64,000 nt of DNA from an uncultured delta proteobacterium (GCA_963803975.1 CAWDOY010000047.1:112096-176095); one strand, 5' to 3'. Positions 4,821 through 23,820 are shown, numbered from the stretch's first letter. Notes: a model not told the origin generated them from the letters alone. Translations and numbers: made by a program.

Positions 4821-5016
4821 TATTGATAGAAACTTGCTTTCGGATAGAGAAAATATAGGCCGGTGGTGGTTGTGTGTCAACAATTTGTTAAAAGATATGG
4901 GCAGGGGTTAACCGAACAAAAATCAACATCTTGTGGTATGCCTTAAAGGCAGGAAAGTGCAGCTTATGTATCAGCAGCGATGAGAAGTTTAGCAGCCTAA
5001 ATTCATTGATGACTTC
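4821..5016. repeat. Direct repeat copy A (~196 bp) carrying a sigma70 promoter. Copy B is at 6222-6423.
   Basis: ~80% identical to 6222-6423. Shared blocks: ATTGAyAGAAAyTyGCTTT, GGATrGAGrAAATATAGGC, TTGTGTGTCAAyAA, ATCTTGTGGT, TATCArCAGCGAT, AGAAGTTTAGCAGCyTAAATTCATTGATGACTTC. Confidence 0.75.
4852..4880 (-). promoter_or_regulatory. Consensus sigma70 promoter (TTGACA-17-TATATT) reading leftward into the secreted-protein gene array
   Basis: Minus-strand TTGACAcacaaccaccaccggccTATATT. -35 at 4875-4880, -10 at 4852-4857, AT-rich UP-like tract upstream. Confidence 0.6.
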
Positions 5017-5137
5017 TTTTGCAAAGCGCCAGTGACAGTTCAAAAAAATCATAGCAGTAGTAGCAACTCGGGCTCCATGATGCAGGGGGGTTCGTTATCA
5101 AAACCGGAAGATAACTCTCATAATTGCCTCAAAATAT

Positions 5138-6153
5138 TTAATCTAATTTTCTTCCGTCAGCCTGTAAGGCTGCAACTGCTTTTTTAATGTCTTCTTCTGC
5201 ACCACCCCTGATTTTAGGTTTTGCATAGCATCGAAGGGAGATATGAACATTTCCCGGATCTTCAATTAAATCTGCTGTAACAATATGCATGGACAGTGCT
5301 TTTCCATTATATTTTTTTGTCCCAATAAAATATGTATTATAATAGGTTTTTTTATCTTCTTTACATTCAATGTCATTCTGTTTTGCCCAGTCATTTAATA
5401 ATGAGGCTGCCTTGTCAAGATTTGCCTTAACACGCAAACGGGTAAAATAGCATCTTTTATCGCTTTGTGTATTTGTCCATGGCCTTATTGATAATTTGTT
5501 CTTATTTTTATCAGTAAGATTTCCGGGCTGTAATGACTCCCAGAAGCTTCTATATTTTTTTACCTCTTTTTCTTGTAGCGGCGTAAGGGAGAGGATCTTT
5601 GTACGTATGTCATTTGCGAATGCCTCTACCCTTTCAGGAATAAGTGATTCCCACATGTCAAGCCCTGTCCATCCCACTTTATCTGCAGGCATGGTTTTTC
5701 CAAGGATCCATATCAGCCTTGCATCATTTGAATTGAGATAACGGTTTACCTGGCGCCCGCCAAATGCCCCGAGTGTTATTGGTTTTAATTTGGGGAATTT
5801 TTCAAGTGTATCAAAGAAATAACTTCTCCCGCTCGAAAGATGAGGCGGTTTCCCGGGCATGTATATGATTATGGTTTCATCAATTTCACCGCAGGTAAGA
5901 AAGTATGCAATTTCCTTTTTTGTAAGTTCATCATGGAACCTTTCAATAAATTTATATGTTGATTTATGCGGTTTTTCCCATCTTGTGTATCCGCCGATTA
6001 TTACATAGTCATAGGGCTCTACAGTTAAAACTTGATTATACATTTTTACATCCACATGATTTTCAAAGCCGATCAGAGCTTTTAACCAGTATGCAACATC
6101 AGCTGCTGAGCCGTATTGGGTTTCATAAGCTATTAGTCCTTTTTTTCTACCAT
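5138..6153 (-). CDS. Flavodoxin-like-domain protein with a C-terminal domain of unknown function. It has a frameshift in an A7 run near the start.
   Basis: True N-terminus is MVEKKGLIAYETQYGSAADVAYWLKALIG with an AAGGAGGAG RBS. Phosphate-loop-like T..GS, DYVIIGGYTRWEKP and KEIAYFLTCG motifs of the flavodoxin fold. The listed ORF 5138..6055 joins after a 1-nt shift in gaaaaaaagg. Confidence 0.55.
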
Positions 6154-6221
6154 GTTACTCCTCCTTGTTTTATATCTATGTTGTGGTTATCTAAGGAGTT
6201 GCAAGCAATATAAATGCAGCA

Positions 6222-6423
6222 AAGAATTGACAGAAATTCGCTTTTGGATGAGGGAAATATAGGCTGGGGAGGATTGTGTGTCAATAAAAAATATGCCGCA
6301 AAATATGTAAAGGATTATTGCGACAAAAATCTACATCTTGTGGTGGGCATTGAACATTGAAAAGTGTAGACTAGTGTATCAACAGCGATAGAAGTTTAGC
6401 AGCTTAAATTCATTGATGACTTC
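6222..6423. repeat. Direct repeat copy B (~202 bp) carrying a sigma70 promoter. Copy A is at 4821-5016.
   Basis: See copy A. Confidence 0.75.
6256..6284 (-). promoter_or_regulatory. Consensus sigma70 promoter (TTGACA-17-TATATT) about 95 nt upstream of the flavodoxin-like gene
   Basis: Minus-strand TTGACAcacaatcctccccagccTATATT. -35 at 6279-6284, -10 at 6256-6261. Confidence 0.6.
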
Positions 6424-6492
6424 ATCTGGTAATATGCAATTGTCTGCTACGATCAAAATCGTGATTTTTTGTTTATCGTTAAAGCTCCCGAT

Positions 6493-6921
6493 TTATGTCG
6501 TCGTCTCGGCACTGGTAAAGCCGGTAAAAACCACCGGGATGATTTGAGAGTATTCAAAGAGAATTACACCCGTTCCGGCAATAAATGCTGTTGGTTCAAA
6601 GGAGGAACCAACCAGAAGCATAATGATGTCGCCTGTTTTGGTTCCGATTTTAGCATTAAGCGAGATATAGGCGCCTGTAAACAGGCTCAAGACGGTAACG
6701 TAAAATCCATCACCCTTAAAACTTGAAATAGTAAGACCGCCGGTATCGCTGAATAAAACCGGTGAGCTGAAAACATCCAGTGAGCAGACGAAATAGCAGA
6801 CGTACTCATTGCCGGTAACAACATTCGGGCCAATACTGTTTTCAGCACGGGCGGTGCTTATGAGTAAACCACCTGCGAGAAGCATACAGCACAATGTAAT
6901 TTTTATTATTTTTCTGTTCAC
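6493..6921 (-). CDS. Secreted hypothetical protein (GTG start)
   Basis: AAGGAGGT RBS 7 nt before GTG. Signal peptide VNRKIIKITLCCMLLAGGLLISTARA. No recognisable domain. Confidence 0.45.
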   Translation of the reverse strand: MNRKIIKITLCCMLLAGGLLISTARAENSIGPNVVTGNEYVCYFVCSLDVFSSPVLFSDTGGLTISSFKGDGFYVTVLSLFTGAYISLNAKIGTKTGDIIMLLVGSSFEPTAFIAGTGVILFEYSQIIPVVFTGFTSAETTT

Positions 6922-7003
6922 ACGTACCTCCTTATTTATTTTGTCTGGTATGTCATTATTTAATATGGTTAAAATCCCTGTTTTAGAAACTGACAGGGTT
7001 CCT

Positions 7004-7825
7004 CTATTTGACTTCCGGGGGCTGAAGCGGGACTTGGAATGGCTCGGCCAGCGTGAAATCAAGGTTGGTTTGAGACGGAATGCGAACTTCCGGACCTTTG
7101 GTCAATGCCTGATATGCTAGAGTTCCACCTGCTCCAACGCTCGCACCAATGGCTGCACCCTTGCCTCCGCCGAAAATTCCTCCAATTATTGCACCCGCCC
7201 CACCTCCAAGCACTGTCCTTTTGGCAGTCTGCTCACCGCGAGATGCGCTCTTATGTCGCACACTGCTGCTGTTTAACAGAATGGACTGCCCCTGTACAAC
7301 CAAATGATCCAAAACGACTTCAAGCTCACTTGAACCCTTAATGCTTCCTGAGGATTTAGCATTTACCAGTTTGATATACACATCAGTTCCCTTGGGTATA
7401 ACGACCTGATTACCAACTGTAATAGGAACATAGAGGGAGGAATGAAACAGGGAGCCAACCTGGCTCGACCTGGAATTAATTGAATCGATCATCTTGACCT
7501 GTATCTCTGTCCCTGCAGGGATCGTGATTACAGTTATTACCTTAATTGCGTCATTGACCTTCTTGATCCCGGGAGTGACACCAGCCAGCTCAACAGCCTT
7601 CTTGTGAATAGCATCATTTGATACCTCGCCTGACAAAGTAGCCTCCCCCTTTGACATGGTAACTTGAATCGATGCGGTCTTCAATTGGGGCTCTGAATAA
7701 AACTTTGCCTGGAGGGCCTGCGTCATTTCCTCATCACTCGGGGTCCTGGAACAGGCTGCGCAACCTAATGCCAAAACGACCAGTAGCAACCAATACGCTG
7801 AAAGATTTTTTAATGTGGTAAGCAT
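7004..7825 (-). CDS. BON-domain lipoprotein with C-terminal glycine-zipper region
   Basis: Lipobox LALGCAAC. BON-like segment QVTMSKGEATLSGEVSNDAIHKKAVELAGVTPGIKKVNDAIKV. C-terminal GGGAGAIIGGIFGGGKGAAIGASVGAGG. Confidence 0.65.
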   Translation of the reverse strand: MLTTLKNLSAYWLLLVVLALGCAACSRTPSDEEMTQALQAKFYSEPQLKTASIQVTMSKGEATLSGEVSNDAIHKKAVELAGVTPGIKKVNDAIKVITVITIPAGTEIQVKMIDSINSRSSQVGSLFHSSLYVPITVGNQVVIPKGTDVYIKLVNAKSSGSIKGSSELEVVLDHLVVQGQSILLNSSSVRHKSASRGEQTAKRTVLGGGAGAIIGGIFGGGKGAAIGASVGAGGTLAYQALTKGPEVRIPSQTNLDFTLAEPFQVPLQPPEVK

Positions 7826-7920
7826 TTTTTAATTCCTTTTTTCGTCTTTGCTTCAACCCAGCAAGTTAAAGGACAACAGCGCACTTTAATGACCCTATCT
7901 GGCAATAAATAAAATGCAGG

Positions 7921-8349
7921 TTACAGATTATACAGTTCCTCATCGTTCAATAATACAAATCCGGCTTTGGAAAGCAATGTCACTGCTTCAGGCATTTCCT
8001 CCACATCAAAAATCATTACCGCCTGATTTTTATCTTTAATGACAAACCCGTAGGCATCTTCGATATTGATTTCCTTCCGGGCAAATACTTCTGCGATCTT
8101 CTGCAGGCCGCCGGGCTGATCATCCATGAGGACGGCAATGACCTCCCGCAGATACGCAGTGAGCCCTTTTGCCCGCAACGTTTCAGTGGTTTTTACCGGA
8201 TCGTTGACGATCAGTTTAATAATGCCAAAACCCTGAGAAGTGGCGATGGTTATGGCCCGCATATTAATATGTGCGTCTTTAAGAATTTTTGTAAGCCGCT
8301 CGAGCCGTCCCGGTTTGTTCTCTGCGAAAATACACACCTGCTGCGCCAT
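7921..8349 (-). CDS. ACT-domain protein (PaaK-associated tandem ACT)
   Basis: ~140 aa with two ACT-like halves (VCIFAENKPGRLERLTKIL... and IAVLMDDQPGGLQKIAEVF...). Sits immediately downstream of a PaaK gene. 45% identical to the ACT gene at 23372..23803. Confidence 0.8.
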   Translation of the reverse strand: MAQQVCIFAENKPGRLERLTKILKDAHINMRAITIATSQGFGIIKLIVNDPVKTTETLRAKGLTAYLREVIAVLMDDQPGGLQKIAEVFARKEINIEDAYGFVIKDKNQAVMIFDVEEMPEAVTLLSKAGFVLLNDEELYNL

Positions 8350-8430
8350 GGCAAACCTCCCTGTTCCCCGTTAGGCGTTCTTGATCAATTGCCTTCAGTG
8401 TACTATATTCCCCTGTGAAAAATTATCAAA

Positions 8431-8516
8431 AAGGGTCCAGGGATTCGAGGGTTCATGGGTTCTAGTCTTTTTTAAAACTTTCACTTGGCCACTTGAATCC
8501 CAGACCACTTGACTCC
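8431..8516. repeat. Intergenic imperfect long hairpin built from degenerate GGGTTC/GGATTC hexamer repeats
   Basis: gggtccagggattcgagggttcatgggttc ... cacttgaatcccagaccacttgactcc, in the PaaK-ACT spacer. Confidence 0.4.
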
Positions 8517-8520
8517 TTTA

Positions 8521-9825
8521 TCATCCCCACTGTTTCCGGTTGTCAAGAACCCGGACCGCCTTACCTTCGCTCTTGGGCAAGGTATCCGGCTCCACCAGCT
8601 CCACGCGGGGCGTCACCAGAAGCTCAGACCTGAGATCGTCAATAATCCGCTTGCGCACGCTCTCAAGATGCTTTAAATCCCCGGTAAACATCTCTGCCCG
8701 TATCTCCGCTTTAACGGTCATAAAATCATTGTCGTCAATGGTGTCAAGAATAATCTGGAAATTGGACCCGACTTCCGGGATGGCCATGAGCGCCTTCTCA
8801 ATCTGAATGGGGAACATATTCACGCCTTTCACAATGAGCATGTCATCGGTTCTTCCTTTGATGCGGCTTATGCGGCGATGGGTTCTGCCGCAGGGACAGG
8901 GCTCCGGATAGACAAAAGCCAGATCACGGGTGCGGTAGCGCAATAGCGGCATGCCTTCACGCCGCAGGCTGGTGAATACCAGCTCCCCTTCAACACCATC
9001 CGGCACCGGCTCAAGCGTGGCAGGATCAATCACCTCCAGGATGTAGCTGTCTTCCCAGGTATGCAGGCCGTTCTGGCACGGGCACTCAAAAGCAACCCCG
9101 GGGCCATTCATCTCGGAAAGGCCGTAGGAGTTGTATGCCTTGACGCCGTATGCCTGTTCTATCCGCTGCCGTGTCTCTTCGGTATGGGGCTCAGCGCCGA
9201 TGAAGGCAATCTTAAGCTTCAGGTCTTTTTGCGGATCTATGCCCATAGTGCGGAACGTCTCAACGAGATGCAGGCCATAGCTGGGGATGATGTGGATAAC
9301 CGTGGTATCAAACTCCTGCATGAGCATGATCTGGCGCTTGCTGTTGCCGGCACCGGCAGGAATCACCATGGCGCCAAGCTTTTCCGCTCCGTAGTGAAAG
9401 CCCAGACCCCCGGTAAACAGGCCGTAGCCCATCATATTCTGGAAAACATCGCCCGGCCGCACCCCGGTCATGTACATGCAGCGGGCAACGAGTCCCGCCC
9501 ATTCATCAATATCACGGGCAGTGTGGAAAATGACGGTCGCCCGCCCGGTTGTTCCCGATGAGGAGTGCATCCTGACTATCTGTTCCCGGGGGACGGCAAG
9601 AAACCCGTAGGGGTAGTGCTCCCTGAGGGTATCCTTGGTGATGAAAGGGATGCGCCGGATATCATCCAGGCCTTTTATTGTATCGGGTGCTATCCCCTCC
9701 TGTTGAAAGAGTGATTGATAGTATGGTGAGTTTCCTGCCTGCTCCACGGTTTTCCGCAGCAGCAAGAGCTGCATCGTTTCAAGCCCGTCTCTGTCGAGCG
9801 TTTCAATATCCTTATTCCAGTACAT
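8521..9825 (-). CDS. paaK: Phenylacetate-CoA ligase (PaaK family, adenylate-forming)
   Basis: SSSGTTGRATV P-loop, YGLSE, GELVFTSL and RYRTRD motifs, C-terminal [13 protein letters not shown]. Probable start at the internal Met MYWNKDIETLDRDGLE. Confidence 0.85.
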   Translation of the reverse strand: MYWNKDIETLDRDGLETMQLLLLRKTVEQAGNSPYYQSLFQQEGIAPDTIKGLDDIRRIPFITKDTLREHYPYGFLAVPREQIVRMHSSSGTTGRATVIFHTARDIDEWAGLVARCMYMTGVRPGDVFQNMMGYGLFTGGLGFHYGAEKLGAMVIPAGAGNSKRQIMLMQEFDTTVIHIIPSYGLHLVETFRTMGIDPQKDLKLKIAFIGAEPHTEETRQRIEQAYGVKAYNSYGLSEMNGPGVAFECPCQNGLHTWEDSYILEVIDPATLEPVPDGVEGELVFTSLRREGMPLLRYRTRDLAFVYPEPCPCGRTHRRISRIKGRTDDMLIVKGVNMFPIQIEKALMAIPEVGSNFQIILDTIDDNDFMTVKAEIRAEMFTGDLKHLESVRKRIIDDLRSELLVTPRVELVEPDTLPKSEGKAVRVLDNRKQWG

Positions 9826-9932
9826 TACGCGAGACCTCTCTGTTTTCTGTTCCGCTATAAAACTCCCGGTCATTTCCGGTATTGTTAGACCATTACCGGT
9901 TTGTCGCATGCCCCCGCTGCTTGACCATACGG

Positions 9933-10505
9933 TTACAATTTATTGCGATAGAGAGCGGGGTCAACGGCCCGCACCATTGCCTGAATATCTAAACCACCGT
10001 CAAGAAAGGTGTTTATTTTTTCTGCCAGGAGCTGCGGCGCAGTCACAATATCAGAGTAGTTTACCGGAAGCATTGCAAAGCTCCGGTGGTTATGAATCCA
10101 GTGGTTGAATTTATTGAGCTGGCCTTTAAAAAGCTCGGCCAGCTTGTCATCACTCAGGTTTGCGCCTGTTTTCCCTGATCTCTGCAGCATTCTTTTTTGT
10201 GACGCAAGAACTTCGTAGATGTTTCGCTCCATGAAAATGACCCGGTATTCATATTCCAGCGGCAGGTCATATAACAGGCTGTAAATCACTTTTACCACCT
10301 TGCCCCGAGCTGTCGGCACCCATGAGGGATCGTCCCGGGTTTTTTTGACCGGCTCAAATTCGTAATATCCTTTCGGGTTATCCTCGTCCCGGGTGCGCTG
10401 GTGATCGGTGAGCACGGGGATGCCGCCCGCTTCAATCATCTGCATCATCATTGATGTGCCGGAGCGGGGAAGGCCTGATACAATCGTAACAAACGATAGA
10501 TTCAT
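9933..10505 (-). CDS. Sulfotransferase-family protein (PAPS-binding P-loop)
   Basis: 5'-PSB-like motif SGLPRSGTSMM and a 3'-PB-like region. ~190 aa, Stf0-like size. Confidence 0.65.
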   Translation of the reverse strand: MNLSFVTIVSGLPRSGTSMMMQMIEAGGIPVLTDHQRTRDEDNPKGYYEFEPVKKTRDDPSWVPTARGKVVKVIYSLLYDLPLEYEYRVIFMERNIYEVLASQKRMLQRSGKTGANLSDDKLAELFKGQLNKFNHWIHNHRSFAMLPVNYSDIVTAPQLLAEKINTFLDGGLDIQAMVRAVDPALYRNKL

Positions 10506-10592
10506 CGAAGGTTATCCTTTACTGGTTGTTTGTTTTCCTGTAGCTCCCGCGAGACTGCCAGGGGGCGTTAAACGAAAGAATTGCTGCCGCCC

Positions 10593-11441
10593 TCAGGCAG
10601 AGAGCCTGCCTTTTATAAAAGGGCTGGTAAGCAGCGCGGAGATCATTGATATGATACAGAACCATACCAGCCACCAGTCTGTTCCACAGATAAATGAATG
10701 CCGCGCCGGATAGGCAATGCTGATTGAAGCAACCGGACCCGCAGCGCTCAGCGGCTGCTCAAGGGGATGCATAATAACATCTGCCGCGTCTGTGCCCGGG
10801 CGTTTGGCGCTGACGCGCATGAAACCTGTGCCTATTGCCAGCTGCTTTACAATCTGCTGATCGCCCACCTGAAATTTGAGCAGATGGGTTCCGTCCTGTA
10901 CCGGCTGAATCGTCCAGCAGATCTCTTTCCGGCTTGCAATGCGCATGGGGCCGGCAACTATTCGCGCGCCGGGACGGGCATCAAGGGTTACGGCCGGCCA
11001 GTGTTCAGAAGCATTGTTCAGTTTCAGATTCACGACTACCGGCGCATCTCCCAACTGCAGGGGACGGGCCTGATACCACAGGCCCATCTGGGCAAGAATG
11101 AGGCTCAAGGGTATACTCATAATCAGCACCGGTATGAGTGAATATACGAACAGTTTAACGGAGCACAGCATCAGCCGTGCCTCGGACTTCATGGTAACCG
11201 CTATATTGTCCCGATAGAGGCGAACCGCCAGCAGACTGGCTTTGATATCATCAATGGTGCGGGTTAAAGCGCGCTGGTTTGAAGTGTACTTAAATATAAT
11301 AAATAACGGGATCCCGAGAACTGCCGAAATAATCGTGATTGAAAGCCAGCCCGGAACCATGGCAATCGGGGCCAATACCAGGCCGCAGACAGTGTTTGCT
11401 GCCGAGTTCACTATGAAAAGAAAATAAATCAATCCGCTCAT
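10593..11441 (-). CDS. Integral membrane protein of unknown function (4 TM helices plus a periplasmic domain)
   Basis: Hydrophobic segments at the N- and C-termini, no recognisable motif. Start overlaps the stop of the upstream small ORF (ATGA). Confidence 0.5.
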   Translation of the reverse strand: MSGLIYFLFIVNSAANTVCGLVLAPIAMVPGWLSITIISAVLGIPLFIIFKYTSNQRALTRTIDDIKASLLAVRLYRDNIAVTMKSEARLMLCSVKLFVYSLIPVLIMSIPLSLILAQMGLWYQARPLQLGDAPVVVNLKLNNASEHWPAVTLDARPGARIVAGPMRIASRKEICWTIQPVQDGTHLLKFQVGDQQIVKQLAIGTGFMRVSAKRPGTDAADVIMHPLEQPLSAAGPVASISIAYPARHSFICGTDWWLVWFCIISMISALLTSPFIKGRLSA

Positions 11442-11629
11442 TACTCAATATAGCCCAAACCGCGCAGCTGTTCTGATACTGCCTTATCATCATCAGGTGA
11501 CGCCTCAAGCAGGGCCAGCTCTTTTTCAATAACAGAGGATACAAACTCTTCAAAACTGCTGTACCCCGCAGCTTCCGCAGCCTTTTTTGCCCGCTCATAC
11601 AGCTTGCTGTCAATTTTTACTTTGGTCAT
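11441..11629 (-). CDS. Small (62 aa) ribbon-helix-helix-like protein
   Basis: MTKVKIDSKLYERAKKAAEAAGYSSFEEFV resembles CopG/ParD-type RHH N-termini. Translationally coupled to the downstream membrane protein. Confidence 0.4.
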   Translation of the reverse strand: MTKVKIDSKLYERAKKAAEAAGYSSFEEFVSSVIEKELALLEASPDDDKAVSEQLRGLGYIE

Positions 11630-11646
11630 GGCTCGCTCCCTGGCAA

Positions 11647-13677
11647 TTATACTTTAAATATATTTCGTCCGGTCATGGTCGCCGGCACCTTTACGCCGAA
11701 TGCCGTCAATATTGACGGCGCAAGGTCAGTAAGGGCCGACGCAGGGCTTATGATGTCCTGATTGCTGAACAGTATGCCCGGCAGTTCAGAGGAATCCATG
11801 CAGTGGTCAGCTGCCCAGGCTGAATCATTATCTGAAAGTATCTCTTTGGGCATATCTCCCAGGCATGATTTCCACGAGCAGCGGAAATCGCGGCTGTAGC
11901 CGATAATTAGATCCGGCGCATACTTCTGCTGCGGCCCTGAATATATCTTGTCTGCTCTGCGCGCTTTGCAGATAACGGCCCTGCCGTCGCTATCCCGCAC
12001 TGCCTCAAGCTTCTGCACAAGCTCTTCCAGAAGGGTTTCCCGCTCTGCAGCGGGGTCCACAATCCCGTACTGCTCCCGTCCTCTCTGGTTAAGATAGAGG
12101 CTGTTGATGCCAAGGCCGTAGGCCCTGGTTTTTGACCAGTCAACGTCAGAAAACAGTGACGTGCACTCAGGCGGACCCAGGTACCCGTTATCCCGCAGCC
12201 AGGTGTTCAAGTTGAACTGGCGCCTGAAGTTTGCAAATCCGTGATCACTCATGATAATGATATGCGCCGTATCACCGTACCGCTTCATGAGCGCTCCGAC
12301 CAGCGCGTCCATCCTGCCGTAGAGATCCTGCACATGGGTGAAATATTTTTGCGCTTCAGCTGCCGTGCGGTAGGGATGTTTTGCCGCGGTGTCCCACCAC
12401 AGCATGTGGGACTGCATGTCGGTACTGGAAAAATAAAAAAAGAGCAGCCCGTCATCATAATTGCGCAGCGCGTAGTCAAGCAGCTGCATGCGCTCCTGCA
12501 GCACATACTCTGCCTGCCGGACAAATTCATCATCACTGAAAACCTTGTTTGAGAGGGCCTTATGGTCTTCCTGAAAACCCGTATTGTAAAAAAGCCCCAG
12601 CTGCTGAGACAGCTCCGGAAGAAATGCGGGCGGCTCGGTAATTTTTATGGCCGGGTCGTTAGGATCAGTATTTATGGGGGTAACATACAGCCTGAAGTTG
12701 GGGGCCGCTTCCTGCAGATAAAACCGGCAGATGCCGCTTATTTTTTTGTCAGGCACCAGCGCGGGGGTTGAAAGGCTGTACTCGATTCGCACCCAGGGGC
12801 TCCATTCACCCTGCTTCATAAGTATCGTCTGCTGCTGAATTTCGACGACAGCAGCCCTGTCGTTGCGGTTGCGATGCACGATAAATTCTATGGTTGCGTC
12901 CTGCGGTTTTTTAAGAAAGGTATTTTTTGGGCCAATTAAAATAAGCGGCCGGGAGGTTTCGCCGTCAAAATATATTTTTGACCGCCTCCCTCCCCCTTCG
13001 CTGACGGGTTTCTCCGGGCCGTCTTCGGCAAAGTGCTGGTAGGTTCCATAAGAGCCCAGCAGGTCAGGGGTCCCCATTCCTGCAAGGCAGCGGTGATTCC
13101 CATGCGTTGAGGAACTGGGCGGGTAGTTTGACGGCAGATCGTAAAACGTTGAGGGAATACCCGCTGCATCAAGATACTCCCAGAACGGCACGCCTTCGCG
13201 CTTCAGCACGGTCCGGGGAGGGGTGTGATTGAAGGGCCAGAAATCAAGCTGCATTTTATGCTCGCCCAGTTCCAGGTAACCGACACCGGGCATTGTTTCA
13301 GCAGCTGCAAAAAAAGGTAACGCCTGTTTTTCCGGATTGCGGTGGATAAAATCAAATATACCGTGGGAGCCGGGGCCCGCGCCGTTGATAAAATTTGCCC
13401 AGGCAACCGGGCTTTGCGGAGGGTTGCTGGTAGCAAGCGGCCGGAATCCATTATTCTTTCTCAGCCGGTCAAGATTGGGCAGCCGGCCCTGCTCCATCAA
13501 ACGGATGCAGAGCAGCGGGTCCATGCCGTCAAAACCTATGACAATAACTTTTTTGCCCGCAACCCTGCGCGGCTTTTGTTCCTGCGCGCTTGCTGCGCGG
13601 GAGCTTATTCCAGCTGCCAGCGCTGCTGCAGCCGCGGTCGACTGTTTTATAAAATCCCGTCTGGTAAGATGTTTCAT
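11647..13677 (-). CDS. Alkaline phosphatase-superfamily protein (type I phosphodiesterase / nucleotide pyrophosphatase family) with a Tat signal
   Basis: Tat motif TRRDFIKQSTAAAAALAAG. GFDGMD metal-site motif, PISPVAW-like PQSPVAWANF, SDHGF. Paralog of 13690..15798. Confidence 0.75.
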   Translation of the reverse strand: MKHLTRRDFIKQSTAAAAALAAGISSRAASAQEQKPRRVAGKKVIVIGFDGMDPLLCIRLMEQGRLPNLDRLRKNNGFRPLATSNPPQSPVAWANFINGAGPGSHGIFDFIHRNPEKQALPFFAAAETMPGVGYLELGEHKMQLDFWPFNHTPPRTVLKREGVPFWEYLDAAGIPSTFYDLPSNYPPSSSTHGNHRCLAGMGTPDLLGSYGTYQHFAEDGPEKPVSEGGGRRSKIYFDGETSRPLILIGPKNTFLKKPQDATIEFIVHRNRNDRAAVVEIQQQTILMKQGEWSPWVRIEYSLSTPALVPDKKISGICRFYLQEAAPNFRLYVTPINTDPNDPAIKITEPPAFLPELSQQLGLFYNTGFQEDHKALSNKVFSDDEFVRQAEYVLQERMQLLDYALRNYDDGLLFFYFSSTDMQSHMLWWDTAAKHPYRTAAEAQKYFTHVQDLYGRMDALVGALMKRYGDTAHIIIMSDHGFANFRRQFNLNTWLRDNGYLGPPECTSLFSDVDWSKTRAYGLGINSLYLNQRGREQYGIVDPAAERETLLEELVQKLEAVRDSDGRAVICKARRADKIYSGPQQKYAPDLIIGYSRDFRCSWKSCLGDMPKEILSDNDSAWAADHCMDSSELPGILFSNQDIISPASALTDLAPSILTAFGVKVPATMTGRNIFKV

Positions 13678-13689
13678 AACAGTTACGTC

Positions 13690-15798
13690 CTATGAGATCG
13701 TTTTCTGCCCGGGGCCGTCCACCTGCAGGGATTTCCCGTCCATGTGGGAAGGAACCGGAACCCCGAACATTTCAAGTATGGTCGGCCCGATGTCCATGAG
13801 CCGCGGGTGCTCGTCATGAATCATGCGATTGCTGAACAGAATGCCCGGAACCAGTGATTGATCAATGCAGTGATCGCCGCTCCAGGCTTTTACATTATCG
13901 TGAACGACCCGGCCGGTTACTTCTCCAATGGCAGTTTCCCATGCCGCCCGGTAACCCGCATTATATCCGACGAGAAGGTCCGGAGCATCCTGTTTGTAGG
14001 GGCCCTGATAAATCTTCATGGCATTATAGACCCTCTTTATTACCGGCTGTCCGTGCAGGGGATCAATAAAACCTTGAAGCTTTTCGGCAAGTTCCTCCCG
14101 GAGCTGCACTGCTTCTGCCCCGGAATCTACCATCCCCTGCGCTTCTCTGCCCTTAAGGTTTAGATAGATGCCGGAAAGGCCGATGGCAAAGGCTCTGGTC
14201 TTTGACCAGTCAACACCTGCCAGATTTTTCCTGCCGCGCCCATTCTCAGTGAGCGACAGATAGCCGTTTTCCTCAAGCCACCGGTTTAAGTCTATGCCGT
14301 AGCGAAAGGAGTTAAACCCGTGATCGGAAATCACCATCAGCAGCGTGTTGCGGTCACGGCATTTTTTCATCGTCTCTCCGAGTATTCTGTCAGCATTCCG
14401 GTAAATCTTTTCAATTTCCGGTTCTGCTGCCGGCTGATAGCTGCCCCGGTGCGCGGGATGTTCGGGGTCAAGCTGGCGCCAGAAAGAGTGCTGTACGCGG
14501 TCAGTGCCGTCAAACACACACACGCACAGTCCCCGGCCGATATTGTCAAGGGCATCAAAGAACATGCTCACCCGCTCCCGGTCGGTCTGCAGGCACTGCT
14601 CAATAAACTGCTCATCACTGATGCGCTGTTCATTCAGCGCCCAGCTGTCCTCAGCCAGGCCCAGGGTTGCATACCGGCCCTGACGCTTGGCCAGGTACGT
14701 TGCATAGACCTGCGGATGGCTGATGGGCATTACCGGTTTATCCGGGTCAATGTTTATCGGCGTCACATAGAGCTTGAAATCCGGCTCAGCTGCTATCAGC
14801 AGAAACCTGCAGATGCCCCGCACCTTCATCCCCAGAGAGGCCTTGAAGGTAACCGGTATCCAGTCAGAGTATTGTCCTGCGATGAGGGCACAGGTTGCGC
14901 CATTGAGATGCAGCACCGCGCTCGTAGCATCCTGAATGGTTATTTCAAAAGGGCATTTCAGGACAACGCGTGCTTTAAGCATGGGATCGTGCGGCCCTGA
15001 CAGCTCTGCTTTGATACGGTTGCCGGTTCTCTCTACCTGATGTACTTCCCCGCCGGTATTCTCGCCCGCGCCGGCAGCGCTGGTCGTGTAAAAGGAAAAT
15101 ATTCCCTGGGATCCGCGCAGATCCGGGGTGCACATTGCCGCAAGCTGCAGGCCGTAAAATTGTTCCGGCGGAAAGGTAATGGGAACGCGGATTATGTTGC
15201 TGAAGATGCCATGCTCGCCGAGCGTCTTCCAGAAGGGAACACCTTTTCTCAGCAGACGGATATCACCGCGCCCGAGAGGAATCTGATAGCGTCCCACTGA
15301 CAGGGTGCGCAGCGGCCCCTTAATATCGGTAGAGCTCAGCTTGGGGGCATACGTTTTACGATCGCGCGTGAGAAAGTCAAAGATATTATGTTTGCCCGGA
15401 TTTACCCCGGTCTGAAATGAAGACCAGGCAACCGGTGAAATGGGGGGAATAGTGGACAGCAGCGGTTTAAAGCAGCCCTGTTCCTGCAGCTTTGCAAAAT
15501 TGGGCAATTTACCCTCATCCAGCAGTTGCGTGGTCAGCGTATAGTCCATGCCGTCAAATCCAATAACAATTGCTTTTTTGATGCGGCTGCGGGCATACAC
15601 TCTGCGGAACCGGATACTGCGCACGATCGTCCGGATCGGCCAGGTCACCAGTATTATAAGCGCAGAGACCAGTGCGGTAAATAAAACTAAAAATGAGCCG
15701 CCAACCGCAAAACCGGCACCCGGACCAATATAGGCGCTTGCAGAACCGGGAAGCAGTGCACTTAATAGTACTGCAAGAGCGACCAGCAAATATTTCAT
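13690..15798 (-). CDS. Alkaline phosphatase-superfamily protein (type I phosphodiesterase / nucleotide pyrophosphatase family), membrane-anchored paralog
   Basis: Two N-terminal TM helices, then IVIGFDGMD, PPISPVAWSSF, VISDHGF. ~35% identical to 11647..13677. Confidence 0.75.
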   Translation of the reverse strand: MKYLLVALAVLLSALLPGSASAYIGPGAGFAVGGSFLVLFTALVSALIILVTWPIRTIVRSIRFRRVYARSRIKKAIVIGFDGMDYTLTTQLLDEGKLPNFAKLQEQGCFKPLLSTIPPISPVAWSSFQTGVNPGKHNIFDFLTRDRKTYAPKLSSTDIKGPLRTLSVGRYQIPLGRGDIRLLRKGVPFWKTLGEHGIFSNIIRVPITFPPEQFYGLQLAAMCTPDLRGSQGIFSFYTTSAAGAGENTGGEVHQVERTGNRIKAELSGPHDPMLKARVVLKCPFEITIQDATSAVLHLNGATCALIAGQYSDWIPVTFKASLGMKVRGICRFLLIAAEPDFKLYVTPINIDPDKPVMPISHPQVYATYLAKRQGRYATLGLAEDSWALNEQRISDEQFIEQCLQTDRERVSMFFDALDNIGRGLCVCVFDGTDRVQHSFWRQLDPEHPAHRGSYQPAAEPEIEKIYRNADRILGETMKKCRDRNTLLMVISDHGFNSFRYGIDLNRWLEENGYLSLTENGRGRKNLAGVDWSKTRAFAIGLSGIYLNLKGREAQGMVDSGAEAVQLREELAEKLQGFIDPLHGQPVIKRVYNAMKIYQGPYKQDAPDLLVGYNAGYRAAWETAIGEVTGRVVHDNVKAWSGDHCIDQSLVPGILFSNRMIHDEHPRLMDIGPTILEMFGVPVPSHMDGKSLQVDGPGQKTIS

Positions 15799-15824
15799 GC
15801 GTAAGCCAACATAATTATAACTGT

Positions 15825-17126
15825 TTACAAAACTCTCTTATCAATAATCTTTCCGGATTGCTGCAGGTTCTCTTCGAGTGTTTTCCGCTCCACCAGCTTT
15901 ACCTCCACTCTGAGGCCGAGGCGGCGCATAAGGGTGCTGCGTGTCTGCTCCAGCAGCGAGCGCTGCCGCTTCATCTCATCAAAGAAGATGTTCTCTGAAA
16001 CTGCCACATGGACCTCCAGGGTGTCGCGATAGTCGTCCCTGGTCACCACAATCTGATAGTGCGGCTCGCATCCTTCTATTTCCCTGAGCACCTTTTCAAT
16101 CTGCCCGGGGACAACATGGATCCCTTTTACCACGATGATGTCATCCACCCGCTCCATGACCCGCTCCATTCTCACCAGCGTCCGGCCGCAGGTACACGGG
16201 CTGAAATCAAGGCTGGTTATATCCCCGGTGCGATAGCGCAGCAGGGGAAATGCTTCGCGGGTGAGGGTCGTCAGCACCAGCTCGCCGGTCTGGCCGGGCG
16301 GCAGCGGGGTGCCGGTCTGCGGGTCAATGATTTCCGGCAGAAAATGGTCTTCAGCGAGATGCAGTCCGCTTTTCGCGTCACATTCGCCGGCGATGCCGGG
16401 GCCTGACAGCTCGCTCACGCCGTAATTATCATAGACAGCGATAAAGAGCCGCTCTTCTACTTCCCGGCGCGTCTTTTCCGACCATGGCTCAGCCCCGAAC
16501 AGGCCTTTCCTGAGGCTTAAGGTTTTCGGGTCGATGCCCAGTTTCCGCAGCCGGTCTGCAAAAATCAGAGCAAAGGACGGCGTTGCCACCAGCACCGTGG
16601 TCCGGTAGTCCTGCATGATCCTGATCTGGCGATCGATATTTTCGCTGGATGCGGGAATAACCGACGCGCCGATGCACTCGGCGCCATGGTGCAGGCCGAA
16701 AGCGCCGGTATAAAGACCGTAGTGAAAGGAGATCTGCATGACATCGTCGTGGGTCACCCCGCCCGCGGTCAGAAACCGGGCGACCTGCGTGCCCCAGTTC
16801 TTCAGGTCATTGCGGGTGTAGCCGATGACGGTCGGCGTATCGATGGTCTCGGTGGTGGTATGAATACGCACCACCTCGCGCAGCGGAACCGCAAACAGGC
16901 CGTAGGGATAATTGCTCTGCAGGTCCTGTTTGGTAGTGAGCGGCAGGCGCTTGAATTCTTCCAGGGTTGAGATGTCTTCAGGGACGATTTTTTTCTCGTC
17001 AAAAATTTTCCGGTAGAATGATACGTTCTTATAGGCGCGGTTAAGGCTTGACTGCAGCCGCTCTAACTGGAGCTGCTGCAGCTCCTCGCGGGGACAACAC
17101 TCAATCTTTTCTTCCCAGATAGCCAT
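15825..17126 (-). CDS. PaaK-family adenylate-forming ligase (phenylacetate-CoA ligase / F390-synthetase-like) with a non-canonical P-loop
   Basis: PaaK-like along its length (YGVSELSGPG, GELVLTTL, RYRTGD, RVDDIIVVKGIHV). The AMP-binding loop reads IHTTTETIDTPTVIGYT instead of [10 protein letters not shown]. Confidence 0.75.
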   Translation of the reverse strand: MAIWEEKIECCPREELQQLQLERLQSSLNRAYKNVSFYRKIFDEKKIVPEDISTLEEFKRLPLTTKQDLQSNYPYGLFAVPLREVVRIHTTTETIDTPTVIGYTRNDLKNWGTQVARFLTAGGVTHDDVMQISFHYGLYTGAFGLHHGAECIGASVIPASSENIDRQIRIMQDYRTTVLVATPSFALIFADRLRKLGIDPKTLSLRKGLFGAEPWSEKTRREVEERLFIAVYDNYGVSELSGPGIAGECDAKSGLHLAEDHFLPEIIDPQTGTPLPPGQTGELVLTTLTREAFPLLRYRTGDITSLDFSPCTCGRTLVRMERVMERVDDIIVVKGIHVVPGQIEKVLREIEGCEPHYQIVVTRDDYRDTLEVHVAVSENIFFDEMKRQRSLLEQTRSTLMRRLGLRVEVKLVERKTLEENLQQSGKIIDKRVL

Positions 17127-17135
17127 GTGCTTCTC

Positions 17136-17873
17136 CTATTCCCAGATCGGTTTTTTCTCTTTGCCCAGATAGGCACGCTGCACTTCCCTGTTTTCCAGCA
17201 GATCCCGCGCATTGCCCTCAAACATTATTTTCCCGGTCTCCATGACATAGCCGCGGTCTGACAGTTTGAGGGCGGCCCGGGCATTCTGCTCCACCAGAAA
17301 AATGGTCGTCTTGCTCATCTCCCTGAGCCGGGCAACCGTTTTGAAGATTTCCGTGACCACCAGCGGGGCCAGCCCCATGGAAGGCTCATCAAGGAGCAGT
17401 ATCCGGGGCCGGCTCATGAGCGCCCGCCCGATAGCAAGCATCTGCTGCTCACCGCCGGAGAGGGTGCCGGCAAGCTGATTCTGCCGCTCCTGCAGAATGG
17501 GGAACAGGGTAAACATTTCTTCTATATCGCGCTGGATTTTTCTGCTTCCGTCGCGGCGGTATCTGATATAGGAGCCAAGCTTCAGGTTATCAAGCACCGT
17601 CAGCGGATTGAATATCTGCCGTCCCTCGGGCACCTGGGAGATGCCCATCTTAACCACACGGTCCGGACTTTTGCGCGCTATGTCTTTATTATTATACATT
17701 ATTTGCCCGGTCCGCGCATTAATAATCCCGGAGATGGTATTGAGCAGCGTGGTTTTGCCTGCGCCGTTGGCCCCGATTAACGAGACAATTTCTCCTTCCG
17801 CGATGTGCAGGGAAATATTCTTCAGAACGTGAATCTCGCCGTAGAAGGTATTGATGTTGAGCAGCCGGAGCAT
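17136..17873 (-). CDS. livF: Branched-chain amino acid ABC transporter ATP-binding protein LivF
   Basis: Walker A GANGAGKTT, signature LSGGEQQMLAIGRAL, Walker B LLLDEPS. Confidence 0.85.
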   Translation of the reverse strand: MLRLLNINTFYGEIHVLKNISLHIAEGEIVSLIGANGAGKTTLLNTISGIINARTGQIMYNNKDIARKSPDRVVKMGISQVPEGRQIFNPLTVLDNLKLGSYIRYRRDGSRKIQRDIEEMFTLFPILQERQNQLAGTLSGGEQQMLAIGRALMSRPRILLLDEPSMGLAPLVVTEIFKTVARLREMSKTTIFLVEQNARAALKLSDRGYVMETGKIMFEGNARDLLENREVQRAYLGKEKKPIWE

Positions 17874-17878
17874 CGTTT

Positions 17879-18646
17879 CTATTCCTCCTTGCCCAGATAC
17901 ACGTCAATTACTTCCTGGTTGGTCTGGATTTCCACCGGCTTTCCTTCTGCAATGCGTTTTCCGTAATTGAGCACGATGATTTCATCTGAAATATCCATGA
18001 CCAGCTCCATATCATGCTCCACGATGACCACTGTTATGCCCATCTCTTTTATGGTGCGGATAAGTGTGCCCAGCTGCCGTGTCTCCTGGGTATTGAGCCC
18101 TGCTGCCGGCTCATCAAGCAGCAGAATCTCCGGCTCGGTCGCCAGCGCCCGGGCTATCTCCAGCAGCCGCTGGCTGCCGATGGGAATGCTGGCGGCAGGC
18201 TTGTCTGCAATGTCCTGAAGGCCGACCATTTCCAGATAGAAGCAAGCCCGCTCGCCGGTGACCGGCTCCTCCCGGCGCATCCGCGGCAGCCGCAGCGCCG
18301 AGCTGATAATGCCTGCCTGCGTCCGGACATGGCGGCCGACCATCACATTCTCAAGCACGGTCATGTTGCCGAAAATCTGGGCGGTCTGAAATGTCCGGGC
18401 AAGCCCGCAACGCGTTATCTCATGCGGCTTCAGCCCGGAAATAGTTTTCTGGTTGAGAAAAATAGTTCCCCGGTCAGGCGCGTGCATGCCGCTCACCACA
18501 TTCAAAAGCGTGGTTTTCCCCGCCCCGTTGGGGCCGATAATCGCTGTTATGGTATTGCGCGCAATGAGAAAGGTGAGGTTGTCCAGCGCCACGACCCCGC
18601 CAAACCCCTTGCGTATATTTAATGACTCTAAGATAATGTCGCTCAC
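17879..18646 (-). CDS. livG: Branched-chain amino acid ABC transporter ATP-binding protein LivG
   Basis: GPNGAGKTT, LPIGSQRLLEIARAL, LLLDEPAAGL. Typical LivG C-terminal extension. Confidence 0.85.
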   Translation of the reverse strand: MSDIILESLNIRKGFGGVVALDNLTFLIARNTITAIIGPNGAGKTTLLNVVSGMHAPDRGTIFLNQKTISGLKPHEITRCGLARTFQTAQIFGNMTVLENVMVGRHVRTQAGIISSALRLPRMRREEPVTGERACFYLEMVGLQDIADKPAASIPIGSQRLLEIARALATEPEILLLDEPAAGLNTQETRQLGTLIRTIKEMGITVVIVEHDMELVMDISDEIIVLNYGKRIAEGKPVEIQTNQEVIDVYLGKEE

Positions 18647-18652
18647 GGTTCC

Positions 18653-19627
18653 TTAAGCCTTGCTTCGTCCGCGCCGTATAGTGCTGTATGCCATGGCAAA
18701 CCCCTGGCTGAGCCCTCCCGGCAAAAACATGATAATAAACAGGAGAATGAATCCATAGACAATTACATCGTAATCCTCAAACACGCGCAGATATTCCGGC
18801 AGTATGGTGAGCAGCGCTGCTCCCAGGATGCAGCCCCAGATATTGGCCATGCCTCCCACCACCACCATCATAACCAGCAGGATGGAAAACATGATATTGC
18901 ACGTGGTCGGGCTGATAAAGGTTACGAAATGCACATACAGGCTTCCTGAAACCGAGGCAACCAGCGCGCTCAGGATAAACACCTGAACCTTTAACTGCGC
19001 AGCGTTGACGCCCATGGCAGTGGCGGCAAGCTCACTGCCGTGAATAGACCGTAATGCCCTGCCGACGCGTGAGTTAATCAGATTGTTAATCAGTATAAAA
19101 ATGATGATAAAAACAATCCACACAAAATAATAATATTTCATGTCTGAATCAAGGACAAGCGAGCCGATCTGAATCCGGGGAATCTCGCCGAACCCTGACG
19201 GCCCGCCGGTCAGGTCCACCGCCGCATTGAGGAAAATATTGACAATCTCGCCGAACGCGAGCGTCGCCATGGCCAGATAGTGCCCCTTTAACCGCAATGA
19301 CGGGACGCCGATCAGGTACGCCACCAGTGCGGTCAGGACGAGCGCCGCGATAAAAGCAACAATGATGGGAACGTGGTAGTAAACCGTGAGTATGCCGGAG
19401 GTGTACGCGCCGATGCCGAAAAACGCCGCGTGCCCGAGAGATATCTGGCCGGTGTAGCCCATGAGCAGGTTAAGCCCCATGGTGGTAATGCTGTATATCC
19501 CGATAAAGACCAGAATGCTCAGATAGTAGGGGTTCTTAATAAAAAGGGGCAGCAGAAAAATGACCACTGCAAAAATCAAAGTTGCGCTGTGTCTGTTGAG
19601 CTTCATAATATCAAAAACAGGGTTCAA
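18653..19627 (-). CDS. livM: Branched-chain amino acid ABC transporter permease LivM
   Basis: Multi-TM permease with a GHAAFFGIGAY-type motif. Probable true start at the internal ATG (MKLNRHSATLIF), ~19604. Confidence 0.8.
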   Translation of the reverse strand: MNPVFDIMKLNRHSATLIFAVVIFLLPLFIKNPYYLSILVFIGIYSITTMGLNLLMGYTGQISLGHAAFFGIGAYTSGILTVYYHVPIIVAFIAALVLTALVAYLIGVPSLRLKGHYLAMATLAFGEIVNIFLNAAVDLTGGPSGFGEIPRIQIGSLVLDSDMKYYYFVWIVFIIIFILINNLINSRVGRALRSIHGSELAATAMGVNAAQLKVQVFILSALVASVSGSLYVHFVTFISPTTCNIMFSILLVMMVVVGGMANIWGCILGAALLTILPEYLRVFEDYDVIVYGFILLFIIMFLPGGLSQGFAMAYSTIRRGRSKA

Positions 19628-19708
19628 GGGCTCAAGTGATCAAGGATTCAAGTGCAATGCGTTTACAAAAATCGCTTGAACCCTCGAACCCTGGAATCCT
19701 TGAACCCT
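19618..19708. repeat. Intergenic imperfect long hairpin built from degenerate TCAAGG/GTTCAAG repeats
   Basis: ggttcaagggctcaagtgatcaaggattcaagtgc ... gcttgaaccctcgaaccctggaatccttgaaccctc, between livH and livM. Confidence 0.45.
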
Positions 19709-19712
19709 CTTG

Positions 19713-20612
19713 TTAAAATTCTTTCAGCTTGCTTGCCTCGCTCACGCCGAAAATGCCGCTCGGCTTTACAAACAGAACCAGCAGCAGCACTAAAAGCGCT
19801 ATGGCGTCTTTGTAGCCAGAGGAAATGAGCCCTGCCCCCAGTGATTCAAGAATTCCAATGAGCAGCCCCGCGACTACCGCCCCGACGCCGTTTCCCAGTC
19901 CCCCGAGCACGGCTGCCGCAAATCCTTTCAATGCCAGGATGGCTCCCCGGTCATATTCCATAAGGGCAACCGGCGTTATGATAATCCCGGCAGTGGCTCC
20001 CAGCGCCGCGCTCAGGGCAAAGGATAAGAGCACCATTTTTTTAACACTGATGCCCACCAGGCTTGCCGCGGTGGGGTTTACGGCGCAGGCGCGCATCGCT
20101 TTCCCCAGCATGGTAAAGTTGAAAAATCCCGCCAGAATGATGACCACCACAAACATGATCCCCAGAATCCAGAGGGTTTGCGGCAGGATGGTTGCGCCGA
20201 ACAGATAAAACGGCTCTTCCCCTGAAAAGTGCGGCAGGGTATAGGTTTCCTTTCCCCAGAACAGCATGGCCGAGCCTTTCATAATGATTGAGCCGGCAAG
20301 CGTTATCATGATCAGGATCAGCACCGACGGCCGCTTGAGCGGATAGATGGCAAGACGCTCAAACAGTGCGCCGATGAGTGTTACCATGATGACAGAAAGC
20401 GCAAACGCCGCGATCATGGGAATTTTCAGCACCGTGGTAAACCAGACCATGAACATGCCGCCAAGCATGACAAATTCACCCTGGGCAAAATTTATAATGC
20501 CGGTGGCATTGTAAATAATATTAAACCCCAGCGCTACCATTCCGTAGATGGTGCCTATGGTTATACCGGTCAATAGAAACTGCAGTATCTGACTGAAAAG
20601 CGACATGCACAA
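19713..20612 (-). CDS. livH: Branched-chain amino acid ABC transporter permease LivH
   Basis: ~300-aa multi-TM permease of the LivH type (GxxGxxG-rich C-terminus). Confidence 0.8.
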   Translation of the reverse strand: MCMSLFSQILQFLLTGITIGTIYGMVALGFNIIYNATGIINFAQGEFVMLGGMFMVWFTTVLKIPMIAAFALSVIMVTLIGALFERLAIYPLKRPSVLILIMITLAGSIIMKGSAMLFWGKETYTLPHFSGEEPFYLFGATILPQTLWILGIMFVVVIILAGFFNFTMLGKAMRACAVNPTAASLVGISVKKMVLLSFALSAALGATAGIIITPVALMEYDRGAILALKGFAAAVLGGLGNGVGAVVAGLLIGILESLGAGLISSGYKDAIALLVLLLVLFVKPSGIFGVSEASKLKEF

Positions 20613-20741
20613 CTACTCCACCCTGAGAAACAGATACCAGTCACCGGGGCTCCCCGCGTCCCTGCGGACAGGTGCCCCGCCAGTCGGAAGACGTCTAAAA
20701 ATCTGCACGATAGTAACTCATTATGACGTCTGTGTAAATTA

Positions 20742-20786
20742 CAAAAAAAGAGGCTAAACCCTAAATATAAAACCGGTGTAGCCTCT
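20742..20786 (-). terminator. Hairpin plus T-run between livK and livH (partial terminator or attenuator)
   Basis: Minus strand AGAGGCTA-n22-TAGCCTCT followed by TTTTTTT. Confidence 0.5.
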
Positions 20787-20857
20787 CATATGCTGCAGTC
20801 TAATGTTCACGGTTCAGGTATCGTGAAGCTTTAAACCTTAAACGTGAAACCTGCACA

Positions 20858-21999: not shown

Positions 22000-22111
22000 T
22001 GTACCCTCCTCCTCGCGTGTTGTTGTTTAAGTATCCCCTCATGTATGTAAAACCGGCCGTCAGTCTTCAGCACAAACCCTGCTTCAAAGCCGGCTGCTAA
22101 GCACTGCAGGC

Positions 22112-23803: not shown

Positions 23804-23820
23804 AAGTAATTCCTCCCGTT

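Follow-up and report, generated by a model that had tools for sequence, protein, structure and literature searches.

The alkaline-phosphatase (AlkP) superfamily supplies the closest described relatives of the enzymes considered here. Its NPP branch is represented by Xanthomonas NPP, ENPP1-7/autotaxin, PafA and PhnA, while at the inner membrane the AlkP fold is used by LtaS, EptA/MCR-1, OpgB and BcsG, which add phospho-alcohol groups to envelope polymers. The latter are PF00884 proteins with a Thr nucleophile, a multi-transmembrane (TM) N-terminal domain and a catalytic domain that is always periplasmic. A pair of AlkP-superfamily paralogs in a different setting lies at positions 9,933 to 15,798 of a 64,000-nucleotide stretch from an uncultured delta proteobacterium (GCA_963803975.1, CAWDOY010000047.1:112096-176095; hereafter the window), in a five-gene cassette embedded between two paaK genes. 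These five genes constitute one autonomous, strongly co-conserved module, composed of a four-gene core, which encodes a membrane-anchored AlkP enzyme (AlkP_TM), a paralog with a twin-arginine (Tat) signal (AlkP_Tat), a small protein (SMALL) and a membrane protein (MEMB), and of an accessory sulfotransferase (SULT).

MEMB served as the marker for the locus search, in which, with one genome taken per species, 139 relatives were returned and 80 loci were kept. These loci comprise Thermodesulfobacteriota/Desulfobacterales metagenome-assembled genomes and many Planctomycetota, the latter including Pirellulales, Phycisphaerae, Sedimentisphaerales, Isosphaeraceae, Gemmataceae and Ca. Kuenenia. Components were counted by tblastn with the window proteins, the denominators being the loci with enough flank. 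SMALL lies immediately 5' of MEMB in 76 of 78 loci, and upstream of MEMB an AlkP_Tat ortholog is present in all 66 informative loci and an AlkP_TM ortholog in 60 of 61. SULT is found downstream of MEMB in 35 of 70 loci (Desulfobacterota 10/11, Planctomycetota 24/56). Identities to the window proteins reach 53-70% for the AlkP enzymes, 48-77% for SMALL, 38-54% for MEMB and 44-72% for SULT, and between Thermodesulfobacteriota and Planctomycetota the AlkP enzymes are 55-70% identical. Long contigs carrying MEMB homologs repeat the same order, with an AlkP gene (~701 aa), a Tat-bearing AlkP gene (~670 aa), a 61-62-aa gene, MEMB and a 190-aa sulfotransferase, in unrelated surroundings that contain no paaK. 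Because order and co-location recur in nearly all loci with enough flank, the set is a real module. The original prediction, made from the window sequence, had allowed that the genes might not be co-conserved elsewhere; the order recurs in 80 loci of two phyla. The sulfotransferase, which it had listed as a full member, is present here and belongs to the set only as an accessory, occurring in half of the loci, and the core is formed by the other four genes. No cultured host occurs among the best 120 matches of a planctomycete MEMB query, all of which are metagenomic.

Conservation next to paaK, which the original prediction had proposed to check, is confined to the genus-level clade of the window. 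The module adjoins paaK only in L006, L086, L088, L089 and L090, whose paaK2 is 87-100% identical to that of the window. Close relatives carry the two paaK genes without the cassette: in L091, L093 and L106 (paaK2 80-83%) the order is livF-paaK1-paaK2-ACT with paaK1 and paaK2 adjacent, and in L094 and L096 (paaK2 70-74%) the order is the same and the cassette is missing. Since the nearest cassette-free relatives have paaK1 and paaK2 side by side, the operon is older than the cassette, which entered it recently: the ancestral arrangement was iorAB-livKHMGF-paaK1-paaK2-ACT, and the module came to lie between paaK1 and paaK2 in this lineage alone. In sister species the cassette is preceded by 0.4-1.0 kb of AT-rich DNA belonging to it, reduced in the window to 26 nt. 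This paaK1/AlkP_TM spacer occupies L089:1346-2376 and L086:7251-7707, and in L089 it holds two direct repeats of ~200 nt together with an AT-rich promoter-like stretch (TATGGTATAAT). In L086, the relative at 89% identity, two genes are called for each of livF, AlkP_TM and paaK2 (5205-5943, 7662-9612 and 13965-15270), which could reflect long-read assembly frameshifts or real pseudogenes. Further upstream in the window (20612-27031), the host operon contains two livK-type genes, a third paaK-like gene (23900-24964) and iorB/iorA-like genes (25300-27031), giving three PaaK-family ligases in one host cluster. With its liv, paaK and iorAB-like content, the host operon is therefore a common aromatic-amino-acid/arylacetate cluster. 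The earlier view of the cassette as foreign to the paaK theme is upheld, and in annotation the cassette in this window should not be counted as phenylacetate or aromatic amino-acid metabolism.

Both core enzymes match PF01663 far above the Pfam cutoff of 23 bits (AlkP_Tat, E 7.5e-29, 101.8 bits; AlkP_TM, E 2.1e-32, 113.5 bits), and their paralogy, already proposed in the original prediction, is confirmed by 36% identity over 646 aa (E 7e-134). In a catalytic alignment of 27 sequences, comprising both paralogs and short 424-aa relatives, residues D50, S89, D420, H424, D478, H479 and H625 (AlkP_Tat numbering) are invariant. The resulting pattern, D / nucleophile / D-x3-H / D-H / H, corresponds to a complete NPP-type bimetallo site with a Ser nucleophile. 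A profile search against the PDB gives ENPP1, Xanthomonas NPP, PhnA and iPGM as the closest solved matches, at E 3e-5 or worse. Structure prediction was run on database proteins; the AlphaFold2 (AF2) model of AlkP_Tat (predicted local distance difference test score, pLDDT, 71.6; predicted template-modelling score, pTM, 0.76) displays an AlkP core with a beta-rich insertion at ~195-335, and the fold comparison ranks PafA, PhnA, autotaxin and NPP1/3/5/6 highest, with template-modelling scores (TM-scores) of 0.2-0.3. Taken together, the conserved site, the distant PDB profile matches and the AF2 fold indicate that these enzymes form a branch of their own within the NPP clade, marked by a Ser nucleophile, and phosphodiesterase or pyrophosphatase activity is predicted for them. 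Assignment of the core enzymes as formylglycine sulfatases was rejected, the nucleophile region reading Q-S-P-V-A-W and not C/S-x-P-x-R.

The two paralogs differ in their N-termini. AlkP_Tat scores 23.3 bits against the NCBIfam twin-arginine profile TIGR01409 (cutoff 16.7), with a weaker match to PF10518 TAT_signal that falls under the Pfam cutoff (E 0.0019), and an RRxF[LI]K-type motif is found in 57 of 59 orthologs; the Tat signal proposed earlier accordingly stands, and the protein is predicted to be exported folded to the periplasm. Orthologs of AlkP_TM open with a basic n-region, to which a short hydrophobic segment is joined; this segment ends in AxA or VxA (-3/-1) in 44 of 49 distinct N-termini. 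In all 49, it is followed by an invariant YIGPGAGFA and then by one TM helix; the distance to a WP pair is always 32 aa, and the 25 aa after WP carry a net charge of +8 to +11. The positive-inside rule places such basic flanks in the cytoplasm; because this polybasic stretch follows the TM helix, the catalytic domain of AlkP_TM is most likely cytoplasmic, irrespective of any cleavage of the first segment. From these sequence features we infer that the two paralogs occupy opposite faces of the inner membrane. The proposal that both enzymes are periplasmic and merely reach that compartment by different routes is consequently probably wrong with respect to the anchored paralog.

MEMB matches nothing at threshold in Pfam or NCBIfam. 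At an identity of at least 47%, 597 homologs are found, nearly all of ~280 aa, and a profile search recovers 2371 representatives of 50%-identity clusters at E<=1e-3. Structurally, the AF2 model (pLDDT 75) consists of helices 2-26, 31-53, 56-75 and 80-124, a beta-sandwich at 135-242 and a helix at 256-276, so that the 4-TM protein of the original prediction acquires a K/R-rich hairpin and an Ig-like ectodomain. The segment 51-95 contains 8 K/R against 4 D/E and the C-terminus is basic, and the beta-sandwich is therefore predicted to be periplasmic. Foldseek searches against the PDB return Ig-like domains alone (SbsC, filamin; best E 0.012). The family has 54 invariant columns, including QMxxWYQxRP and YPxRxSxxxGTDWW at the membrane boundaries, the latter standing before the last TM helix. 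A Joint Genome Institute label of Oxa1/YidC/DUF106 insertase was discarded: none of 16 members matches PF01956 or PF02096 at E<=5, and a YidC-like fold was likewise rejected in view of the Ig-like Foldseek matches.

SMALL is represented by 77 distinct orthologs, in which G57, L58, G59 and Y60 are invariant. They have in common M-x-K-I-K-I-D, LYDRAKKAAEAAGYSS and VEEFIxHxIEKE, after which an acidic linker leads to the invariant QLRGLGYIE. No Pfam or NCBIfam model is matched at threshold. The sequence pattern is compatible with a ribbon-helix-helix (RHH) protein, as first suggested, but profile matches are all sub-threshold (PF07704 in 5/20 members, best E 0.003; PF01402 in 2/20, E 0.027), as is the match to the RHH structure 1y9b (E 0.14), so that the RHH assignment receives weak support.

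The tail of SMALL belongs to a wider motif, L-[RKE]-x-L-G-Y-[IVLM], usually preceded by acidic residues, which occurs ~45 times in the 365,259 aa of neighbourhood open reading frames (ORFs), against a rough chance expectation of <1. Besides the SMALL tail (window 11441-11470), it is carried by 12 of 18 neighbouring PF00884 proteins, often at the extreme C-terminus, by 8 of 16 ASST arylsulfotransferases, by all 6 CysD C-termini and by both DUF2061 C-termini. A related WLRxxGYL forms a cap element of the AlkP enzymes, and Pseudomonas CysD (1ZUN) ends in the related ...EEKKRQGYF. Examples are found among the L018-L085 neighbours, such as L022:11208-13493, L076:2805-5108 and L053:4218-4523. The motif may act as a docking peptide or a modification site; a literature search for motif strings of this type returned no paper.

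SULT matches PF13469 Sulfotransfer_3 (E 6e-9, 37 bits against a Pfam cutoff of 27), and its PRSGTS loop (5'-phosphosulfate-binding, 5'-PSB) and R94...S102 (3'-phosphate-binding, 3'-PB) are invariant in 17 orthologs. The original prediction had called it Stf0-like, an identity that was rejected. There is no PF09037 match at E<=0.01 and no Stf0 structure among 49 PDB profile matches, and the family profile instead resembles cytosolic SULT1 enzymes (E ~1e-5), aligning over its full length with SULT1C3.

Clustering of 1092 ORFs from the loci reveals several recurrent neighbours. ASST (PF05935) occurs in 15 loci of Planctomycetes, mostly directly upstream of AlkP_TM and co-directional with it; a PF00884 'sulfatase', with or without tetratricopeptide repeats (TPR), occurs in 15 loci of both phyla; and cysD and/or cysN occur in 6. 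A signal-less 424-aa PF01663 enzyme is found in five loci of Planctomycetota, accompanying cysD and cysN in L027, L050, L053 and L056 and standing alone in L069, with DUF2061 also present in L050 and L053. Representative neighbourhoods are L053 1706-4523 with the adjacent cysD and L056 7877-9151 with its neighbours; no cysC was seen near these cysDN/424-aa loci. The 424-aa enzyme could act on adenosine 5'-phosphosulfate (APS), and because a cytoplasmic AlkP enzyme adjoins cysDN, there are hints that the AlkP family may handle phosphosulfate substrates of the APS or 3'-phosphoadenosine 5'-phosphosulfate (PAPS) type, or nucleotides. The PAPS sulfotransferase, ASST and cysDN together create a sulfuryl-transfer theme around the module, which agrees, as a general idea only, with the link to sulfation and the envelope drawn in the original prediction. 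The PF00884 neighbours carry T-L-P-[SA]-H at the nucleophile and not C/S-x-P-x-R (L020, L022:11208-13493, L043:12332-14132, L004:11838-14012). With this Thr/His motif in place of the formylglycine motif, they were rejected as true sulfatases; judged by sequence, they are probably Thr-type phospho-transferases or hydrolases, and the sulfatase annotation is probably wrong. Other neighbours in Desulfobacterales and Planctomycetes are variable and without theme (ilvD, aroE/aroA, a deacetylase/epimerase pair, a LolA-like protein, GH2 and an ion channel).

The layout of the locus is summarised in Table 1. In the ORF listing of window positions 6000-20000, the cassette is an unbroken, tightly spaced, co-directional run, in agreement with the gene list and the translational coupling first described. 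Intergenic gaps measure 26 nt (paaK1/AlkP_TM), 12 nt (AlkP_TM/AlkP_Tat), 17 nt (AlkP_Tat/SMALL), 87 nt (MEMB/SULT) and 23 nt (SULT/paaK2), and the SMALL stop overlaps the MEMB start by 1 nt (TAATG). The GC content of the cassette (0.50-0.56) is the same as that of its flanks, and no flanking direct or inverted repeats are present at its borders in the window, where the sole repeats arise from AlkP paralogy. Both paaK flanks carry AMP-binding and AMP-binding_C_2 domains (Pfam) and are PaaK-like in NCBIfam, with scores under the equivalog cutoff. The paaK2 ORF is probably annotated too long: homologs align from residues ~20-30 and relatives begin with MFWD or MYWN, which makes a start at M29 (MYWNKDIE, ~9825) probable. 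Separately, window positions 5001-7062 form a low-GC stretch (0.38-0.39 against ~0.52 around it), which encodes a 305-aa protein with a weakly flavodoxin-like N-terminus and a 189-aa ORF without a Pfam match.

Table 1. Features of the cassette and of the adjoining host operon (window positions).
Feature	Position	Strand	Length	Description
AlkP_TM	13690-15798	-	702 aa	NPP-type alkaline-phosphatase-superfamily enzyme, PF01663
AlkP_Tat	11647-13677	-	676 aa	Paralog of AlkP_TM, PF01663; twin-arginine signal (TRRDFIK, AxA site)
SMALL	11441-11629	-	62 aa	Predicted cytoplasmic; weakly RHH-like N-terminus, acidic linker, tail QLRGLGYIE
MEMB	10593-11441	-	282 aa	4 TM helices, cytoplasmic hairpin (51-95), periplasmic Ig-like beta-sandwich (~126-250); topology predicted
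SULT	9933-10505	-	190 aa	Cytoplasmic PAPS-type sulfotransferase, PF13469; accessory member
paaK1	15825-17126	-		Upstream flank, host operon, outside module; TIGR02155 E 9e-138
paaK2	8521-9909	-		Downstream flank, host operon, outside module; TIGR02155 E 3e-142
livH, livM, livG, livF	20612-17136	-		Upstream of paaK1
ACT-pair protein	8349-7921	-		Beyond paaK2

Tentatively, and with less than even confidence, we favour a trans-membrane pathway in which a compound is primed and sulfated at the cytoplasmic face, exported and given its final form in the periplasm; the product would be sulfated and anionic, and would belong to the envelope or be secreted. The compound, with a phosphodiester or pyrophosphate linkage and possibly a phosphosulfate one, would be built or primed at the cytoplasmic face, where AlkP_TM would reside, and would be sulfated in the cytoplasm by the PAPS sulfotransferase; elsewhere, the sulfuryl chemistry could come from cysDN with the short cytoplasmic AlkP enzyme, or from a periplasmic ASST. 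The compound would then cross the membrane, with MEMB either linking the two paralogs or transporting between them, and the periplasmic AlkP_Tat would transfer or trim it to give the sulfated anionic compound of the envelope or the medium. SMALL would use its tail to dock at the cytoplasmic face and might also autoregulate as an RHH dimer.

Several observations weigh against this proposal. No characterised homolog is closer than E ~1e-5. Sulfation may be peripheral to the core, because half of the loci have no sulfotransferase, and the PF00884 neighbours, given their absent formylglycine motif, lend the sulfate theme no real support. The opposite-face topology is itself a prediction, and the Foldseek searches with MEMB showed no similarity to a known transporter or flippase. 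The degree of AlkP identity between the two phyla, moreover, suggests a universal small substrate and not a lineage-specific glycan or lipid.

Among the alternatives, the least credible is that unrelated genes were juxtaposed by chance between the paaK genes. Their themes do look unrelated to paaK and the flanking contexts differ among genomes, yet the same order and tight spacing in 60/61 to 76/78 informative loci of two phyla, at protein identities of 40-77%, refute this explanation and leave it almost no probability. A role in phosphate scavenging or phospholipid turnover is unlikely but has more in its favour. AlkP_Tat would here be a periplasmic phosphodiesterase or phosphatase like PhoD, PhoX or PafA, AlkP_TM would strip head groups from inner-leaflet phospholipids, and SULT would aid the synthesis of sulfated, P-free anionic substitutes under phosphate limitation. 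Such a role fits the resemblance in fold and profile to PafA, NPP, autotaxin and PhnA, Tat export is typical of PhoD and PhoX, and the NPP family includes the lipid phosphodiesterases NPP2, NPP6 and NPP7. A regulatory signature is lacking, however: across 56 loci, the region upstream of AlkP_TM shares no promoter, operator, 8-mer, sigma-54 or Pho-like motif, the Pho-box consensus of these phyla not being known, and in the window the first cassette gene starts 26 nt past paaK1, which leaves the cassette without a separate regulatory region. Scavenging would also leave unexplained why a cytoplasm-facing paralog, SMALL and MEMB are obligatory partners, and why ASST and cysDN occur as neighbours. 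It is these obligatory partners and the missing regulatory signature that disfavour the explanation, and ordinary Pho-box phosphatases, against which the original prediction had set its own proposal, are not indicated by the 56 upstream regions.

The LGY motif invites a further explanation, namely protein-tyrosine modification, in which SULT or ASST would O-sulfate the invariant tyrosine of L-x-x-L-G-Y in SMALL and its partners (phosphorylation or nucleotidylation being the other options) and the AlkP enzymes would remove or transfer the group on either side of the membrane. The motif frequency, well above chance by the rough estimate given above, speaks for it, as does the best solved match of the SULT profile, a SULT1-family 'tyrosine-ester'/phenol sulfotransferase; ASST enzymes, moreover, act on phenolic sulfates. 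This explanation is disfavoured chiefly because the motif is invariant also where no sulfotransferase is nearby. In addition, the 1ZUN alignment indicates that a related GY[FM] C-terminus is ancestral in Pseudomonas CysD, for which, to our knowledge, no such modification is known, the AlkP enzymes hold the similar WLRxxGYL as an internal structural part, and in SULT the position aligned with the catalytic His of SULT1 holds another residue. Tyrosine modification consequently appears improbable. A trans-membrane sulfuryl relay, in which a cytoplasmic PAPS/APS step would load a phenolic carrier and MEMB and the AlkP enzymes would pass the sulfate across the membrane to supply the donor of periplasmic ASST, draws on the same motif, its invariant tyrosine being one candidate carrier. 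We regard this relay as very improbable; if true, it would provide the long-sought physiological aryl-sulfate donor of ASST in a compartment without PAPS.

The 55-70% AlkP identity across two phyla points to an important, undescribed function, and if the paralogs do act on opposite sides of the membrane, the arrangement would be an uncommon one for the AlkP superfamily. MEMB (~2,400 representatives of 50%-identity clusters) and SMALL define two families without a Pfam or NCBIfam match. The recurrent link to a PAPS sulfotransferase, ASST and cysDN offers a possible entry point to bacterial sulfation outside the cytoplasm. Literature searches on motif strings, COG3379 and clusters of sulfotransferases with AlkP enzymes found no description of the module, and PADLOC returned 0 anti-phage defence matches for all five proteins.

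Compared with described systems, each component combines familiar features with distinctive ones. SULT shares with the cytosolic SULT1 family the 5'-PSB loop (PRSGTS), the 3'-PB element (R...S) and the full-length SULT1C3 profile alignment, but comprises 190 aa against ~295, does not conserve the KTH catalytic His and has its own invariant DNPKGYYEFE. SMALL resembles RHH antitoxins and regulators (VapB/Rv0623-like, CopG, DUF1778/TacA) in its size, its beta-strand/helix/G-x-S/helix pattern, its weak profile matches and its build, in which an acidic linker joins a folded N-terminal part to a conserved tail. It differs from them in lacking a match at curated threshold and a toxin partner, in the invariance of QLRGLGYIE across phyla and in the recurrence of a similar motif in unrelated neighbouring enzymes.

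The AlkP enzymes are allied to the NPP branch by PF01663, by the seven site positions and by their best profile and fold matches. They depart from it in having a Ser nucleophile instead of Thr, in a ~140-residue beta-rich insertion and a cap with WLRxxGYL, and in reaching solved structures only at E ~1e-5 and TM-scores of ~0.2-0.3; here, moreover, a paralog pair predicted to be cytoplasm-facing and Tat-exported is joined by two undescribed partner proteins. For transfer in the periplasm, LtaS, EptA/MCR-1, OpgB and BcsG provide the closest functional analogy. The homology found to these enzymes stays at the superfamily level; the module enzymes belong to PF01663, one being predicted to be soluble and Tat-exported and the other to be a single-TM protein facing the cytoplasm. 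Collectively, the module represents an AlkP-superfamily membrane-associated system with an undescribed four-protein architecture.

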